This document shows, piece by piece, positions 8,025 through 59,700 of a DNA stretch of 64,000 nt. This DNA comes from a virus. Taxonomy: Duplodnaviria > Heunggongvirae > Uroviricota > Caudoviricetes. The DNA lies in the IMG/VR virus record IMGVR_UViG_3300017747_005082, positions 9,618 to 73,617 of that record. One strand, written 5' to 3'. Every line of letters begins with the position of its first letter. The stretch's first letter is position 1. The notes under the pieces are model-generated. The model saw only the letters and a list, made by a program, of their open reading frames with translations. It had not been told where the DNA came from and did no database searches. A program made the translations under genes and the position numbers.

Positions 8025-9787
8025 TTATTCTGTGGGAGTTTCTTTTTGTTGTTTTTCCTTTTCCAAATCTTCTCTTGTCCAAAATCCTTTTACTCCTGGT
8101 ACTCTTCTAATAGCTGTTTTTACAGTAGATTTAATATCTGAATTTTCTTCACTTGAAAATGGGAACGGATCTATTTTAATAGATAATTTGGTTCTTTTAT
8201 CTTGATTTGCTATATCTATATTTCTAACAACAGTTATTCCTGTTATACTTCTTATATCTGATAAGATATCAGTTAAATTAAGTCCATCTTTAATATAAAG
8301 AATACCATCCATATGAATAATATTATTTATTGCAGATTCTTTAATTTCATCTTTAGGTTCTACCTCATATTTTCCATAATATGGATTATCTTCAGTATTA
8401 TCTGCTATTTTCTTTAAATCGTTGAAATCAAATGAAGTGGTAATCCCAGTTTCATCTAATTTTACTGCATAAAAAGGATGTTTAGATAATGAAATAACTC
8501 CTTCTTGTCCATCTTTAGTAGATACTCTATCTCCTTCTTGGAATTTGGTTTCATCTTCCAAAATTTGAATAATACTTTCTCTAATTAAATGTCTAAGATT
8601 CTGTTTCATTTTTAGGTTTTTCCTCGGGTTTTTCTTTGGATGGTTTTTCTTTTTCTAGTGAAGACTTTAATCTTTTTAATAATTCTTCGAATTTATCTAA
8701 TTGATCATATAAAGTATTTATATCACTAGAAATAGCTGAACGTTTACCTGGATCAGAAATACCTTCTGTAGTTTTAGATTGTATCTCTAATTTTATTTCA
8801 GCAATTTTGTCTTCTAATTCTTTTACTTTTGAAGAACCTGTTTTAATATCTTCTTTTAATTCTGAATCCCTCTGTTTTAATAATTTTCGAGAAGTGGTTC
8901 TAGCTTTACCTTCGGATTTGTAAAGGCCTACAATATTTTCCTTTGTTAAACCTTGAGAAGAAAGCATTTCTGCTAAACCAAAAACATCAAGTTCTTTAAT
9001 TAAATCATCCTCAGTAGATTCTTTAATAGCTTTTGTTACTATCCAAAAATTTCCAATTTGGTCTTCTAAATTATATGCTTCTTGTGGTTGTGAATCTAAT
9101 ATATTTAGGTTTTCTTTAAGTAACTTTTCTTTTAATTCTTCCTTTATTAATGATATAAGTTCCGTTTTTTTCATTATTTATTTTTTATTAATGTCTATTA
9201 TAAATATATTAAATTGTTTTGGATTTCTGTTCTTTAATTTGTTCTTTAATTTTTTTAATAAATTCTCTATCTATTCCTCCCCCTAACCATGTTTCTTTAA
9301 CACCATCTTCAGTAATAAAGGAATCATTTGTAGAATTACTATATTCTTCCAAAGCAACTTCTAATTCATCCAATAATGAATTTCGGTTTGAATTCATCAA
9401 TTTTCTTTCATATTCCTCAAACTTACCTTCTAATTTAAGTTTAGTTTCCATTTCAAAAACACAATCAGAACAAGTTCCATGTATATTATACATTTTTTTA
9501 TTAAGTTCGCTTATTTTAAAATGAGTTTTACAATTTGGGCATGTTAAAGGATAATGTAATATTTTTTTTAGTTTATCAAACTTAGTAATGGTTTGTTTTA
9601 ATCCATCTTTGATAGTCCACGTTTTATCATTTTCTTCCCAAATATCTCCTTCTTTATATTCTATTTTTTGTGAAGTATATCCTGTTTGAGTTTTCGTTTT
9701 TTCTCCATATCTTCCAGTAGTTAAATTACGAATACGAGCTAGATCACTTTCTGAAAATTCTTTTTTTAATAATGTTTCTTTACTCAT
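8025..9787 (-). other. three hypothetical CDS (8025-8609 KOW-like; 8593-9174 coiled-coil; 9209-9787 with CxxC...CxxC)
   Basis: ORF track; motifs read from the translations. Confidence 0.55.
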
Positions 9788-36785: not shown

Positions 36786-38396
36786 TTAAATTACTATTGC
36801 TTCAATTTCATCAATTAACGCTTTATATCCTTTACAATTAGATTGAATTAAATCAAATATCTTATCTGACCAACCAGCAATTTGTAAAACATTTAATGAT
36901 TTATCAAATACTGAAGTTCCCTTTGTTTGTTTAATATCAACACATATAGTATTACATTGTGGATTTACTTGTTTGAATTTTTTAAATAATATTTGAAATG
37001 ATCCTAAACCAGCATTTGAAGTATTATCCCATCCTCCAATTCCTCCAGAACTAATAACCATATCTGAAAATATAACTAAATTATCAACTTTTGTGTTATT
37101 TTTAATAACATCGTTTAAGAAATAATATAATCCATTTTCTGTATTGGCTCCACATTCTTTTCCTTTTTCAAATGAACGTTTATTAAAATCTAATAAACCT
37201 AATTTTCTATCCATATTAATTGAAATTAATTCATTTCCAAATAATCCCATATAAACATCTCTTTGGGAATATGCTAACATAGAACCAAATAAATTCCCAA
37301 TCATAGCAGTTGTTGTTTTAGAAAAAGCGGATATTTTAGAACTACCTCCTGCATCTCCTCTTACGGAACCTGAATGATCTACTAATATGGCAGTATTACC
37401 TTCTAATGCTGGAATATTATCTACAGAATATTCTAATGCTTTTTCTAATGCTTTTAATACTTTTTCTATAAGTACTTTAGGTTTCATATCTGATTCAAAA
37501 GCTATTTTAGAAGATGAAGTAGTTGGGTTTATATCTTCTACTTCTTTATATGCTGATACAAATCTAAAAGGTAATAATTTAGATTTTAACACTTTATCTC
37601 TATTAGTTAATTGACTAATAGCGTCATCTACTTTATCAGGAGCTAATAGAATAATATTTCTTAAATTTCTTACCAAATTCATCATTGGCATTCCTTTTAC
37701 ATTATCTAATACAGTAGTAATAGCTTCTTCTTTAAGAGTTTCAACTTTAACTCCTGTAGATTTAGCAATTTGACCTGCTTTAGACATTTCTTTTTCAAGA
37801 ATTTTAGTATTATATAATCCATCTAAAGATTCTCCTTTTATTAAACGTTTATACGCTTCTTCATTAATTTGAGAAGGTACTGGATGTGTTAAATTAACTA
37901 AATCTACTAATGAAATTCCTTTTTTAGCCATTTTATACTTATCTATTAAATAAGGATCCATTGACTCTAATTTAGATTTAAATCCTCTCTTCATAGCACT
38001 TGCTATTTTTGTATTTCCTTTTGAGAAATAATAAGCTAGAATTTCTGACATATCATCAGGTCTAGAAGCAATTTTTCTATAAAATCTTGAAGCATATTCT
38101 TTTCCTGATAATCTTGGAGCTAATTCTCCCGAAAGTAAATGAGTTACTGATCTCATATTAGCATCATTTCTTAGATATAAAGCTAATTTTGCTACAAATT
38201 GTTCATCAACAACAGAAGCAGCTTTATTTATTCTATCAACTACTTCTTTTTCTTTTTCATAATATGAATTTGAAAGAAATGTAGTCAAACAAGTTGATAC
38301 TAATTCTTCTTTAGCGCTTAATTGATACGCTTTTTCTCCCATTTTATTTACTGTAGTTGGAACTACTGGTTCTTTTGTTTTGTTAAATTTCGACAT
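36786..38396 (-). CDS. rsr: Ro60/Rsr TROVE-domain RNA-binding protein with C-terminal vWA domain
   Basis: FVAKLALYLR....MRS, KYK......SLVDLVNLTHP, LLPFRF..AY, LVDHSGS MIDAS, VIFSD. Confidence 0.9.
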   Translation of the reverse strand: MSKFNKTKEPVVPTTVNKMGEKAYQLSAKEELVSTCLTTFLSNSYYEKEKEVVDRINKAASVVDEQFVAKLALYLRNDANMRSVTHLLSGELAPRLSGKEYASRFYRKIASRPDDMSEILAYYFSKGNTKIASAMKRGFKSKLESMDPYLIDKYKMAKKGISLVDLVNLTHPVPSQINEEAYKRLIKGESLDGLYNTKILEKEMSKAGQIAKSTGVKVETLKEEAITTVLDNVKGMPMMNLVRNLRNIILLAPDKVDDAISQLTNRDKVLKSKLLPFRFVSAYKEVEDINPTTSSSKIAFESDMKPKVLIEKVLKALEKALEYSVDNIPALEGNTAILVDHSGSVRGDAGGSSKISAFSKTTTAMIGNLFGSMLAYSQRDVYMGLFGNELISINMDRKLGLLDFNKRSFEKGKECGANTENGLYYFLNDVIKNNTKVDNLVIFSDMVISSGGIGGWDNTSNAGLGSFQILFKKFKQVNPQCNTICVDIKQTKGTSVFDKSLNVLQIAGWSDKIFDLIQSNCKGYKALIDEIEAIVI

Positions 38397-38961
38397 GACT
38401 TAAAATTTTAATATTTAATATTTGTTCTAAATATTCAAACATAGGTTTGAATTCTTCTCTATATAATTCTTTTTTAATAATAGGATATTCTTCTTGGTAT
38501 TTATTATACATGGTTGAATTAGTAAGTAAACCATAAGAAGTATTTGCAATTATATCACATAATTTAACAAATAATCCTAAACGACATTCTTTTAAACCCA
38601 TAATATATTCAATTCCATGTCTTTCTTTTCTATTTTTACCTTTTAATTCAGTACAAGAATAAATAACTTCTGCAACTTCTTTAGAAATATTAATTTTATT
38701 AGATCCATTTGGATAATGTTCTTCAAAATATATAGAATATTGAAGTATATCATTATATGTTATTCTGGCATCTTCAATCAAATCATGCCCCCAAGCTCCA
38801 TTTAATGCTATACATAAATCTTTTGGATTTAATATAAATTGAAATTTTTCTACTTGTTTTGCTACTAGATTTAAATGAAATGAATATGGTAAATTTTTAT
38901 CATATTTTTGATTACAATTAATATCATGTTGTTGTTTACAAAATTCTATAAATTTACTCAT
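38383..38961 (-). CDS. RelA/SpoT-type HD hydrolase (small alarmone hydrolase/Mesh1-like)
   Basis: QKY...PYSFHL..V, AWGHDLIED, VKLCDIIAN. Confidence 0.7.
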   Translation of the reverse strand: MSKFIEFCKQQHDINCNQKYDKNLPYSFHLNLVAKQVEKFQFILNPKDLCIALNGAWGHDLIEDARITYNDILQYSIYFEEHYPNGSNKINISKEVAEVIYSCTELKGKNRKERHGIEYIMGLKECRLGLFVKLCDIIANTSYGLLTNSTMYNKYQEEYPIIKKELYREEFKPMFEYLEQILNIKILSHVEI

Positions 38962-39726: not shown

Positions 39727-39909
39727 AATTTTGTGGAGAATAGGTACTCACCCCACTATACTTTCCCATACCTAATAACTTAAGATACTAAAGCTTTAAA
39801 TTTTAATACACTTTATAGCCCTGTAGTTTTCGCTGTTCTCGAAACCGTATCTACTTAGGAGACTTCTGCTATAAAATTCACATAAAACTGATGTTAAGTA
39901 TTAAAAATA

Positions 39910-40176
39910 TTATTCTGTGTATTCTAAGATATATTTATCAATTAATGATTGAGATATTTCTTTTTTAACACATTTTTGTCTTTCTTTACCTTTCAAAACA
40001 GCGTAAGCTTCATATAAATGTCTTAATTTTTCTCTATTACTAAAAACATTATAAGTGGCTTGATCTGCTTCTACTGTTCTTATACCGGTAAAATGAATTG
40101 TTTTTCTTTGTGGTTTTAAAACTACTTGTTGATCAACTAATTGTTTAATATCTGTTCTAATTTTTGTATATTTCAT
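39910..40176 (-). CDS. hypothetical basic protein, translationally coupled (ATGA) to the Pth2-like gene
   Basis: Its ATG overlaps the TGA of 40173-40514. Confidence 0.65.
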   Translation of the reverse strand: MKYTKIRTDIKQLVDQQVVLKPQRKTIHFTGIRTVEADQATYNVFSNREKLRHLYEAYAVLKGKERQKCVKKEISQSLIDKYILEYTE

Positions 40177-40514
40177 GATAATGTTAATTTTAATTTTTTA
40201 AATAATTGTTTGTGTAATTCTGATGGAAGTGATTCAATAGCAATAGCTGTTAATTGATTACCTATATCAGGTTCTAAAAACACACTATATTTAATTTTAA
40301 GTTCATCTAATTTTGATCTTAAGATCTCAATTTTGAACTCTGATTCTTCCAAACAGCATAAATAATTACTTTTAAATTGCCATTCTTTAAATTCATGATA
40401 ATACTTTACAGCAAAATCAGCTAACGCATGAGCGGATTGTACTACCTTATAACCAGGTGTTAAATCCTTTCTTGTAACAATAGTGATAAAATCACCTTCT
40501 TTAATCTACTTCAT
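40173..40514 (-). CDS. peptidyl-tRNA hydrolase 2 (Pth2)-like protein with in-frame TAG at codon 3
   Basis: Hand translation MK*IKEGDFITIVTRKDLTPGYKVVQSAHALADF...FLEPDIGNQLTAIAI...; 114 codons, TAG at 40506-40508; absent from the ORF track. Confidence 0.8.
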
Positions 40515-40537
40515 AATAAAAATTATTTAATTAGTAG

Positions 40538-40611
40538 TGATTTTAATGGGACTCGAACCCATAACCTTCAGTTTTAGAGACTGCTGCTCTTACCAATTGA
40601 GCTATAAAACC
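40538..40611 (-). tRNA. amber suppressor tRNA (anticodon CTA)
   Basis: Cloverleaf GGTTTTA/TAAAATC, D-arm GCTC/GAGC, loop CTCTAAA, T-arm ATGGG-TTCGAGT-CCCAT. Confidence 0.9.
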
Positions 40612-40831
40612 AATTTTCATTACATGAGATTACTGTAACTAGATTTTAACTGTTTTTTTTCTTAAAAATTCAACAATTAGTGTCTTACCACATGAACTAA
40701 AATCAACCTTTCCGTGGAGGAGTAGGTAGTTCTCCTTTTATCCAATCGGCCCCTTCTGTAAAATCGTAGACGGAACAACTATAACTTTGTTAATGTAAGT
40801 TACAAAACATCAAGTATCTCTTACTTATTCG

Positions 40832-40901
40832 TAGCGGTCGCAGGAATCGAACCTGACCTTAGGGTTATGAGCCCTTCGTGCTACCCTTACACTACCCCGC
40901 G
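40832..40901 (-). tRNA. initiator-like tRNA-Met (CAT), atypical
   Basis: CGCGGGG start, GGG/CCC anticodon stem, mismatch at 1:72; shortened variable/T region. Confidence 0.7.
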
Positions 40902-43211: not shown

Positions 43212-43490
43212 AAATTTACCTAGATTTCGTTCTAGGAAGACGTAAATAATAAATTCCTGGAACCTATTATTTAACAGCTTATTAAGCCGCTATTGCAAAG
43301 TTGTCCTTTACGTTTATATTAATCTCTATCTATTACTTAATCTAATGTCAAAGCCATTCCTCCCCTTATACAGTAGAGATAACTATAAGTTATCTCAACA
43401 CCCTAAAATACACATGGTATAAGGGCTTAGTGGAGAGGCTGGGTTTCGAACCCAGGTCCATTAAAATGTTAATAAACGTCAACAATTAAT
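43212..43490 (-). ncRNA. ssrA: circularly permuted (two-piece) tmRNA
   Basis: 3' piece GAC-CTGGG-TTCGAAA-CCCAG-CCTCTCC-A (to 43431) precedes 5' piece GGGGAGG-AATGGCTTT-GAC (from 43365); G3:U70; tag frame 43282-43311 VKDNFAIAA* TAA TAA; outer ends approximate. Confidence 0.88.
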
Positions 43491-56791: not shown

Positions 56792-59700
56792 AATTATTTA
56801 TTTTTTAATTATTAATTTATATTGTAAATATATGAAACAATTTTAATAAATCAAATGCCTAAGATGTATATTACTTTTCTATTTTACGTAATTCCGTCAA
56901 CGAAAGGGTATATCAACTTGCCTCTATATTATCTTTGAGATTTTTCACCATTTCCTCTAATGTAGCTAGTAAATCTAATTCTTCTTGTTTATTACCATAA
57001 GTAATAATTTCTCTGCTAATGAATTTATCTATTCTTTGCATCCAATTTATTTTAGCTTTACCTTCCATGATTTGTTTTATTTATTGGTGTCAAAATAATA
57101 TTTTCTATAACCACTTTCCCATTTTTTACGTTCAATTTTTGTCATTTTTCTTAAATGCCAATTTGGTAACATATGAACATAATCATCTATAAAAGAATAT
57201 TCAATTCCTGGTGCTAATGATTCTTTATGTCCTTCTTTAAATGTAGGATAATAAGGGTCTGCTAATGATATTTCAATTATTTGACCATCATAATCAGCAG
57301 TTTGGTATGTATCAATTAGAGATGATCTAATTTCAATTGAATAATGAACATATTTAAGTTGATTTTTTGTTTTCATAACTGTAAAATAATTAATTATTAT
57401 TTAATCTTATACTATAAATATATGAAAAAAACAATTATAAAACAACGTGGATTTTAATTATTTTATTGCGAGTCAACAATTGCGATGTAGGTCGAGAGGT
57501 AATCGATATTTTCCGCTTGTACTTGCTTATATACCGTATATTTTTTATAGGGAGTTCAGGCATGACTGAAAGAAACCTAGATACCAGGTCTGAACTTAAC
57601 TACCTCTTCCCTCGTTTCTCACTTCTTACTACCACTTTTCAACCCCAATATATACGTATCTCACCCTTCCTTAGTTGTACCTCACACTTTATTTAGATCG
57701 CTCTACCCTAAAGTTTAGATGCATCTAAAAATTCATTTAGTCTGTAATATTCCAAGGTACATTCGTTACATCAATATCAATTCTACAAGCATTATCTAGT
57801 TTTGCTTTTCTTACCATATATGGAATATTAGCATCTTTTAATGATTCTATAGTTTTAATATAACTTTCACTATCTACTATTTCCTCTACCCACATTAAAT
57901 TGTCTCCTTTTAATTTCTTAGAAGCATATTTATTGTTTTTATAAAGGGTTCCTACAATAGATTTAATTGATGTAACATAGGTATCAGGTGTTCCAGGGGG
58001 ATGATATAATACTTGAATAATTAATGTATTTTCAGACCCACAATGATCTTTATATGCTCTCATAACCATTTTGATTTAATTAATCTTTTTTATACTCATT
58101 ATAGAATTGTATAATATCTTCCTCATTAAAACACTCAGTTAAATAGTTAATTTTTTGTGAATTACTTAAATCAGAAATTTCTGCATCACTACAAAATTGT
58201 TTATTTTTAATTAATAAAAGAATTTTTACTCTTACAGATTCCATAACTATATTGTTTTAATTATTATTACAGTGTGAATATACAAAAGTAGTTTTAAATA
58301 TCAACGACCTGATTTATTCAGCATCGTGATCGTAATTAGTTAATTCGTTTAATAATTTCTCAGCATCTTCCTGTGACAGTGTCTTAAATATATCAGCATA
58401 ATCTAATTCATGATTTAACATTACTTCCTCAGAAATATATTTTTCCAATATAGGATTTAAATCAATATCATCATAAGTATCATACAATTCAAAGAATAAT
58501 TCAACAATTGAATCTACGGTAAGTTTATTTGCTTTCATAGCCTTTATTTATATTACCGATGCACAACCATTAAGTAAATATAAGATTTCATCTATATTTT
58601 CTTGTACATACTCTTTAGTACTTTCATCACATTCCCAAGCATAAGATACACTATTAATATTTTTATAGGGTGTATCATATTCTCCAAATTCATTTCTTTT
58701 TTCAGAAATCATTTCTAATATGCTTTTGAATTGTTCTTCCTCTGTTCTACCTAAAGTATATTTTTTTAAATTAAGAGGAATTTGTTGTAAAATTTGCATA
58801 ACAACAGAATGTATATAATCTTCTAATGATATATTCATAACTTTAATTATTTAATTATTATAGTGTAAATATACGAAATAGTAATTAATAATCCAATACC
58901 TTAATTATTAGGATAATTTGGTACTAGAAATGTTAAAATACTAGAAATATTCTCCCCTACTCTTTCATAAAATTTACAGTTATGAAGAAATTTTACTAGT
59001 CCTAATTTTGTTTTTTGATTTAGATGTTTTCTATATAATAATCTCATTTCTTCATCATTAAATAGTTTATCTACCTCTACATAACCTTTTTGTAATAATT
59101 CCTCTTTACTTAGAAGATTTAATTCAGCAGCTATTTTTTTCATAACTATAATGTTTTAATTATTTAAATTTCTATATTGTAAATATATGAAGTTAAATTA
59201 TATAATCCACTACCCTTACTACATTTCCACTCCCAAAAATAGAATGGTCTGTTCCACTATACCATAATTTTTTAATACATTCTTTTACATCATATGGAAT
59301 TGATTCATCTTCACCTGAAGTGATTACCAATACCTTAAATATATCTTCATATTCATTAGTTATATGAACTTTCTCTACATAAATTAATCCTCCTTCCCCA
59401 CAATCATATTCAAATAAGTTAGATTCATAATCATCTTCCTCATATGATTTGTTTATTTCTTGGGATAATATTTCTGGTGTTTCACTACATAGATTTACTC
59501 CATATTTTCCTACTATATATTCCGTTTTCTGTATACATAACTATTATATTTAACTATTATGTTGTAAACATACGAATTATTATTTATAACTCAAATACCT
59601 ATTATGGATATTTTTATTTTTCTATATCTTGTTCTATTTTCTCAAAATATTTTTTAAATTTTTTCCATTGTTTTTTTGAAATATCATTATACGTTTCAAC

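Follow-up and report, generated by a model that had tools for sequence, protein, structure and literature searches.

The 64,000-nucleotide stretch of viral DNA analysed here (the window; positions 9,618 to 73,617 of IMG/VR record IMGVR_UViG_3300017747_005082) carries on its minus strand a predicted amber suppressor tRNA gene with the anticodon CUA (tRNA-CUA), directly followed by a gene for a Pth2-like peptidyl-tRNA hydrolase that is interrupted by a UAG at codon 3. In our judgement it is likely that this hydrolase is translated only when the suppressor tRNA of the phage outcompetes release factor 1 (RF1) at the UAG, and the cassette would represent a case of suppressor-tRNA-dependent gene expression in a phage that is well supported by comparison with related loci. 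Its anatomy, its conservation, the use of the standard code elsewhere in the genome and the Pth2 fold of the product can be read from the sequence and its comparison with relatives. The window derives from a complete virus genome of 180,524 bp with direct terminal repeats (CheckV 100%) and a G+C content of 26%, in which the minus strand carries almost all genes.

A preliminary description of this DNA had pointed to a 114-codon minus-strand frame from 40514 to 40173 with a TAG at codon 3 as its sole interruption, and the sequence bears this out. The minus strand reads ...cccattaaaatcac tactaattaaataatttttatt ATG AAG TAG ATT AAA GAA GGT GAT TTT ATC... to TCA TGA, the 114 codons including both stops (TGA at 40175-40173). 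The tRNA with the anticodon CTA that had been placed directly upstream was called by ARAGORN as well as by Rfam, and the gap of 22-23 nucleotides agrees with the description within one base. Likewise, the TGA of the Pth2-like frame indeed overlaps the ATG of the next gene as ATGA, and the 'attATG' context of the start codon, which had been likened to that of neighbouring genes, matches the start context of the genome (of 238 open reading frames, ORFs, 60% have A at -3, 52% have T at -2 and 49% have T at -1). The positions of all features are given in Table 1.

Judging from related sequences, the TAG is no error and is not confined to this isolate. It is kept in all four nearest relatives fetched (loci L103 to L106, 71-82% identical). 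According to ARAGORN, L103, L105 and L106 harbor a tRNA-CUA 20-130 nucleotides upstream of the gate; in L104, for which ARAGORN made no CUA call, a tRNA-like sequence with a CUA anticodon was identified by eye directly upstream. Hence, both the codon-3 TAG and the adjacent CUA tRNA, the conservation of which the preliminary description had proposed to check, recur in relatives. A sense codon at position 3, which had been named as evidence that would speak against the idea, was not found in the DNA of homologs. Database homologs of 113 residues that begin with MKQI, MTQI or MMQI (71-86% identical) were considered as carriers of a sense Gln codon at this position, which would have marked the TAG as a nonsense mutation specific to this isolate; this was rejected, because their DNA has TAG and yields the database sequence only when TAG is read as Gln. 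The Q at the gate appears in the databases because these proteins were called under genetic code 15. In the public collections, proteins P0001-P0013 and P0077 were translated under code 15 or, in the case of the fragment from the window itself, under code 4, which places a W at the TGA stop; translation under either code renders stop codons invisible at the protein level. Other database copies start at an internal Met and comprise 104 amino acids ('MTIIT...').

The frame behind the TAG shows a ratio of nonsynonymous to synonymous substitution rates (dN/dS) of 0.17-0.29 at a synonymous divergence (dS) of 0.6-1.1 when compared with the four relatives, indicating that it is translated and under purifying selection and that the TAG has outlasted near-saturation of silent sites. 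Moreover, the Logan assembly of the probable source run is identical over positions 39900-40900 at a coverage of ~40x; since it was built from the same reads by a different assembler it provides weak independent support, and the strong support comes from the comparative evidence. Among public runs, the locus is present only as assembled contigs in the probable source run, and an RNA run contains a relative's fragment that ends before the TAG. A pseudogene, or a sequencing or assembly error, would account for a lone in-frame stop near the start, which resembles a fresh nonsense mutation. Given the same stop in 53 other loci, the dN/dS values and the identical result of the second assembler, this explanation is practically negligible and is effectively refuted by conservation.

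The phage uses the standard code and is not TAG-recoded. TAG terminates 23 of the 238 ORFs of at least 80 amino acids in the complete genome, including those of a 562-aa and a 474-aa protein, and the base behind these terminators is T (10), A (7), G (4) or C (2). No other long gene of the complete genome contains an internal TAG, reading TAG as sense does not lengthen its ORFs more than reading TGA as sense, and neither a release-factor domain nor a GlnRS-type synthetase is encoded in it. Similarly, the 8-kb neighbourhoods of nearly all loci with a gate of this kind (see below) show no sign of TAG recoding. It is therefore very improbable that the phage uses code 15 with TAG as an ordinary Gln codon, even though gene callers picked this code for the short contigs of relatives and some huge-phage relatives (L012, L084 and L030) have a second TAG inside the gene. 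Genome-wide recoding was rejected, as we found neither many genes with in-frame TAG nor an abandonment of TAG as terminator. Apart from that of the gate, no TAG in the complete genome has both an in-frame ATG ahead of it and 60 or more open codons without ATG behind it, which argues against a chance arrangement. A search for a second gated gene or a tiny amber leader yielded 16 other stretches in which ATG, TAG and an open frame follow each other, mostly located over the tRNA array or random-looking, and none was convincing. The sole other intergenic candidate with a start-like context, ATG GTA TAG followed by 30 open codons without ATG at window positions 59243-59265 on the minus strand, lies in a good A/T-rich start context and is probably due to chance.

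The gate is widespread. We collected 81 distinct Pth2-like loci from IMG/VR, an annotated phage collection and this window, and in 54 of them an ATG is followed by 1-9 sense codons, an in-frame stop and the conserved core. The leader most commonly comprises two codons (35/54), with 1 or 3-9 codons in the remaining 19, and Lys is the commonest codon before the stop (18/54). This stop is TAG in 53 loci and TAA in one, whereas in these loci only 19% of the in-frame stops that precede other ORFs are TAG; the corresponding binomial p of about 1e-36 ignores kinship, as the loci are not independent. Directly 3′ of the stop, 41 gated loci have an A, 12 a G, one a C and none a T, so that 53 of the 54 carry a purine there. 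UAG is classically well suppressed in front of a purine, and the conserved Ile or Val codon at this position also contributes to the bias. In a tree of the protein, nearly every deep branch has the gate, across protein identities of 35-85%, and it is absent from a mostly G+C-rich clade with the N-terminus M-A-T-I-K-M-G-D-K.

The codon next to the stop bears on an alternative in which the hydrolase begins behind the TAG, at the ATT or by re-initiation, independently of the suppressor. The ATG-AAG-TAG would then be a tiny upstream ORF, either an element of the start-stop kind or a minigene of the bar type known from phage lambda, that tunes or attracts ribosomes. This codon is ATT in 26, GTA in 5, GTT in 5, ATA in 4 and ACA in 3 gated loci, with others including AGC, AAC and ACT, so that a near-cognate start (ATT, ATA, GTT or GTA) adjoins the stop in 40 of 54 loci. 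Moreover, a few relatives (L023 and L025) have an ATG five codons past the stop, and mycobacteriophages have a GTG start directly behind a TAG with proper Shine-Dalgarno spacing. Nevertheless, in 14 of the 54 loci the post-stop codon is no near-cognate start (ACA, ACT, AGC, AAC, AGA, GCC, CTT, AGT or GAC), and ungated homologs read M-A-T-I-K-x-G-D, which renders the Ile in question an internal, conserved residue. The upstream in-frame ATG is conserved as well, and a mini-ORF would require neither TAG in particular nor a linked tRNA-CUA, yet TAA and TGA are absent from the gate except where the tRNA reads TAA. In the window, T, A and G at -3 to -1 of the ATT do not fit the start context of the genome, as opposed to the 'attATG' of the gate, and the stretch from the TAG to the conserved core lacks ATG, GTG and TTG, the first such codon being the TTG at codon 55. 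Similarly, 50 of the 54 gated loci lack an ATG between stop and core. We thus regard initiation behind the TAG as distinctly unlikely and as less economical than gating by the suppressor.

The linkage between gate and tRNA argues for suppressor gating. A suppressor tRNA gene on the same strand within 4 kb was found at 45 of 54 gated, but only at 10 of 25 ungated loci (Fisher p 2e-4). Where gated loci contain no more than four tRNAs (45 loci), suppressors make up 42 of 80 tRNAs, which shows that the linkage is no by-product of a location in tRNA arrays. The locus L003 (67% identical) has a TAA gate together with a tRNA-UUA 19 nucleotides upstream, and as judged from the two sequences this is a natural compensatory pair. 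The proposal of the preliminary description that full-length hydrolase would be made only upon amber readthrough is strongly supported by these comparisons, namely the 45 linked suppressors and the TAA/UUA pair. In addition, the tRNA-CUA of the window shares an identity of 0.73-0.87 with the CUA tRNAs of other Pth2 loci versus at most 0.67 with any tRNA of its own genome, suggesting that tRNA and gene are inherited together.

These observations also bear on a neutral origin of the arrangement, in which the amber codon arose in a dispensable N-terminal tail beside a suppressor tRNA, was tolerated and is now maintained by a ratchet devoid of regulatory meaning, the real task of the suppressor lying elsewhere, e.g., in the readthrough of host or phage terminators or in countering tRNA-targeting defences. 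The inserted residue falls into an unstructured tail in the AlphaFold2 (AF2) model, suppressor tRNAs adjoin ungated Pth2 genes in 10 loci, and the authors of the Xanthomonas phage XacN1 study found CUA tRNAs without any target (PMC5852040), all of which would fit a neutral lock-in. A tolerated TAG should be lost quickly, since a change of one base turns it into a sense codon in seven of nine cases, but almost every deep branch retains it, over protein identities of 35-85% and with dS near 1. Moreover, the type of the stop tracks the anticodon, TAA occurring with UUA, and the +4 purine is present in 53 of 54 loci. We consider a neutral lock-in unlikely; it would still imply tRNA-dependent translation, and differs from suppressor gating with a regulatory role in purpose only.

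The gate is present in four of six classified records of uncultured huge phages in the annotated phage collection (LR756501, LR756502, LR756504 and LR745206), and the cultured Tenacibaculum phage pT24 (LC168164; L018:2963-3915) has the same gate, ATG AAA TAG ATA, with an annotated tRNA-Sup (BPT24_227) 2.6 kb upstream. In pT24 the Pth2 domain is fused to a C-terminal extension of ~165 residues, and the coding sequence BPT24_235 is annotated from an internal ATG, thereby losing the first strand of the domain. The mycobacteriophages IkeLoa (L022:2970-2985) and Myrna (L021:2970-2985) have an in-frame (A/G)TG TAG directly before the annotated GTG start of their 'peptidyl tRNA hydrolase'; this GTG shows good Shine-Dalgarno spacing, and a tRNA-CUA is located ~0.5 kb downstream.

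The assignment of the protein to the Pth2 family was examined by profile and structure comparison. Pfam PTH2 (PF01981) matches the 110 residues encoded behind the TAG with 26.3 bits versus a cut-off of 23 over profile positions 4-114 of 115, and in a six-frame search of the genome the gene scores 25.4 bits. The phage-family profile A1 matches Pth2 chains of the PDB over their full length with E values from 5.8e-9 to 1.5e-3. The AF2 model (predicted local distance difference test, pLDDT, 94.3; predicted template modelling score, pTM, 0.87) retrieved Pth2-family proteins as all of the top 13 Foldseek matches in the PDB (template modelling score, TM, 0.62-0.80; probability 1.00), including human Bit1, four archaeal Pth2 enzymes and the unannotated Ta0108, with TM values of 0.7-0.8 to Bit1, SsPth2 and AF2095. 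Residues 1-5 after the TAG form a coil in the model, and the first strand begins with F-I-T-I-V-T-R. Q23, H26, F76, E78, P79, D80, T86 and A87 are invariant in the phage family, and the Q..HA motif as well as an acidic residue align with archaeal Pth2 enzymes. Taken together, hidden Markov model and fold uphold the Pth2 assignment made in the preliminary description, but conservation of the catalytic residues is not clear, and the hydrolase activity is a prediction from sequence and model.

The tRNA-CUA has the second best Rfam score of an array that extends over window positions 39.4-46.5 kb and comprises 25 tRNA genes called by ARAGORN and one more detected by Rfam alone. Its anticodon loop reads C-U-CUA-A-A, with U33 and a purine at position 37 flanking the anticodon, and its discriminator base is A73. 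The CCA end is encoded neither in this nor in the other tRNA genes checked. The 26 tRNAs cover every amino acid except Trp, and no tRNA-Trp(CCA) was found anywhere in the complete genome. A derivation of the tRNA-CUA from a mutated tRNA-Trp was rejected, as its nearest kin are the CUA tRNAs of other cassettes and L103 has both a tRNA-Trp(CCA) and a tRNA-CUA. The acceptor stems and discriminator bases are diverse among the 66 linked suppressors and point to no particular amino acid; there is a weak hint of kinship between the tRNA-CUA and the tRNA-Lys(CUU) of L046. The spacer between tRNA and ATG starts with CACTAAT- in the window and in L103, L104 and L106. A promoter scan revealed no promoter-like site within its 22 nucleotides, and for this reason tRNA and Pth2-like gene are probably co-transcribed, with the transcript being cut by tRNA processing.

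From this arrangement we infer suppression at the UAG as well as the purpose of the gate. Ribosomes would start at the ATG at 40514, synthesize fMet-Lys and encounter the UAG with fMet-Lys-tRNA in the P site. Termination by RF1 or drop-off of the dipeptidyl-tRNA would yield no useful product, and without suppression the overlapping 88-aa gene would probably remain untranslated too. Decoding of the UAG by tRNA-CUA, possibly favored by the A after the TAG as a suppression-friendly context, would give rise to the full enzyme of 113 residues and would allow ribosomes to reach the ATGA junction of the 88-aa gene. The output of enzyme would consequently be tied to the amount of working suppressor tRNA, i.e., tRNA that has been made, processed, CCA-tailed and charged. 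Since the N-terminal tail that contains the stop is unstructured, it should make no difference which amino acid is inserted, and the diverse acceptor stems of the linked suppressors fit the insertion of any residue. As to the purpose, we prefer the idea that an enzyme for the recycling or rescue of peptidyl-tRNA would be dose-matched to the load that arises from suppression and from heavy phage translation. Equally possible, the gate might serve as a check that the phage's own tRNA set works before the enzyme appears. The minigene loop put forward in the preliminary description, in which a two-codon MK minigene would produce the substrate of the hydrolase itself, may be a reasonable third purpose.

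The 88-aa gene is probably translationally coupled to the Pth2-like gene and would then share its gate. It has no match in Pfam, PHROG or Atlas. An orthologous small gene with the motif ...Q..K.QRKT..F.G.R... is located 3′ of the Pth2 gene in L003, L023-L026 and L103-L106. In six relatives (L003, L026 and L103-L106) the two genes overlap by ATGA, and in L023-L025 the small gene starts 10 nucleotides downstream.

Several points weigh against suppressor gating. The case is built on sequence and comparison, and the tRNA-CUA is presumed to be expressed, processed and charged with some amino acid. An active amber suppressor should extend 23 phage proteins and many host proteins, which would be costly. 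In 26 of the 54 loci the stop is adjoined by ATT, a codon capable of weak initiation. The linkage to the tRNA is not absolute, with nine gated loci lacking a suppressor tRNA within 4 kb and 10 ungated loci having one, and an analysis of the joint loss of gate and tRNA in phylogenetically independent pairs, which comprised three supported pairs (p 0.25-1), had no power. In the mycobacteriophages, the TAG may merely precede the gene as a relic or a coincidence, rendering this case ambiguous. Finally, the catalytic residues of archaeal Pth2 enzymes are the Lys of a G-K motif and the Asp of a D-A-G motif, and the G-K Lys is not conserved in the phage family, where the aligned column contains Y, Q or A and the next one K or Q. 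We therefore refer to the protein as Pth2-like, and the exact substrate of the enzyme is uncertain.

The prevalence of the two-codon leader and of Lys before the stop weakly backs the ideas that the gate senses termination stress or acts as a bar-like minigene. In an extended and more tentative version of suppressor gating, which we regard as rather unlikely, the cassette would be a translational sensor with a feedback loop. The fMet-Lys-UAG minigene head would split ribosomes among RF1 termination, drop-off and suppression, and the hydrolase and its coupled 88-aa partner would be made in proportion to suppressor activity and then act back on the tRNA pool. They might do so by recycling peptidyl-tRNA that has dropped off, by trimming the charged or peptidyl form of the suppressor, or by selectively discharging host tRNAs once the phage tRNA set has proven functional. 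If this held true, the 'orphan' suppressor tRNAs of standard-code phages would be regulatory parts rather than decoding aids.

Table 1. Features of the suppressor tRNA/Pth2-like cassette and its surroundings in the window, and gates of the four nearest relatives
Feature	Position	Strand	Sequence or evidence
Pth2-like gene, 113 residues if UAG is decoded	40173-40514	-	Pfam PTH2 PF01981
Gate ATG AAG TAG, then A	40506-40514	-	ATG 40514-40512, TAG 40508-40506
Spacer from tRNA 3′ end to ATG, 22 nt (22-23), A/T-rich	40515-40536	-	sequence
tRNA-CUA (amber suppressor, predicted)	40537/8-40611	-	ARAGORN, anticodon cta at position 35; Rfam tRNA 70.7 bits
88-aa gene	39910-40176	-	own ATG overlaps TGA of Pth2-like gene (ATGA)
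Extra tRNA, CAT anticodon	40833-40900	-	Rfam 38.9 bits; missed by ARAGORN
TROVE-related gene, 536 aa	36786-38396	-	match to phrog_850 'RNA-binding protein'; L105 ortholog carries Pfam TROVE (Ro60-like)
HD-domain phosphohydrolase gene	38383-38961	-	phrog_990; adjoins the 536-aa TROVE-related gene
Candidate permuted transfer-messenger RNA (tmRNA)	43282-43477	-	Rfam RF04321, 60 bits vs gathering cut-off 47; within tRNA array
L103 gate			ATG ACT TAG ATT
L106 gate			ATG AAG TAG ATT
L104 gate			MKKGGTGM*I
L105 gate			MKKELDSL*I

The locus was found in a single public run, a freshwater metagenome. A Shine-Dalgarno-like motif precedes only 10 of the 238 ORFs of the genome, and the rarity of this motif together with the A-rich starts resembles initiation of the Bacteroidota type, which suggests a Bacteroidota host in fresh water. 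The candidate permuted tmRNA in the tRNA array, which was not called by ARAGORN, as well as the TROVE/Ro60-like protein and the HD-domain protein encoded nearby support a theme of translation and RNA quality control for the neighbourhood. In a distant relative (L010:3706-4028), ARAGORN called a permuted tmRNA adjoining the Pth2-like gene. Between the CAT tRNA and the CUA tRNA, ~220 nucleotides of the minus strand (window positions 40612-40832) are non-coding and conserved blockwise with L103, a contig of 5.1 kb. This stretch, which includes a hairpin AGGAG-N9-CTCCT, is possibly a non-coding RNA.

A stop-reading phage tRNA has likewise been proposed to switch on genes with in-frame stops in code-15 crAss-like and Lak phages, including the Jade-phage 'code change module' (Borges et al., bioRxiv 10.1101/2021.08.26.457843). 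The same study reports suppressor tRNAs also in standard-code relatives and presents the late-gene switch as a hypothesis; the word 'hydrolase' is absent from its text. In recoded phages many late genes for structural and lysis proteins contain many in-frame stops and the stop has been abandoned as terminator, whereas here a single gene with one stop at codon 3 is gated and joined to the tRNA, and TAG still terminates in a standard code. Members of the protein family to which the gated gene belongs were described by Iyer et al. 2021 (PMC7824862), who found PTH2 across jumbo phages and proposed peptidyl-tRNA hydrolysis in ribosome rescue, with no mention of 'stop codon' or 'suppressor'. Xanthomonas phage XacN1 shares with the phage studied here the presence of CUA tRNAs in a standard code, but its authors, who inspected its 18 amber terminators, identified no target gene (PMC5852040), whereas here a concrete target adjoins the tRNA. 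The Pth2-like domain of XacN1 is fused to an N-terminal domain and is ungated. In the full-text literature searched we found no description of a stop-gated phage Pth2 or of a suppressor tRNA/Pth2 cassette, in agreement with the preliminary description, which knew of none.

Two further systems resemble the gate in part. In prfB, which encodes release factor 2 (RF2), an early in-frame UGA confers autoregulation; the ribosome escapes by shifting into the +1 frame, and the stop is recognized by the gene product itself. In both cases an early in-frame stop makes the synthesis of a translation factor depend on the decoding of that stop. Here the escape would rely on a dedicated tRNA, and the product may or may not act on UAG decoding. 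The lambda bar minigene is free-standing; its expression leads to drop-off of peptidyl-tRNA and is toxic in Pth-defective hosts. Its form, an ATG, one sense codon and a stop, recurs in the window and in the loci with a two-codon leader (35/54). Here, unlike in bar, the two codons open a longer gene, drop-off and toxicity would be predictions, and 19 of the 54 leaders differ in length.

Gene callers shorten genes of this kind, as in BPT24_235 of pT24 and in the 104-aa 'MTIIT...' proteins of the databases, or print a Gln under code 15 and thereby hide the stop. Since the gate occurs in the cultured Tenacibaculum phage pT24, the idea is directly testable. Suppressor tRNAs are common in standard-code phages and their targets are an open question, to which the cassette offers a conserved and physically linked target gene. 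If suppression is confirmed, it would constitute a natural minimal case of gene control by a dedicated stop-reading tRNA within the standard code, a plausible stepping stone to full stop-codon recoding and a ready-made orthogonal switch.

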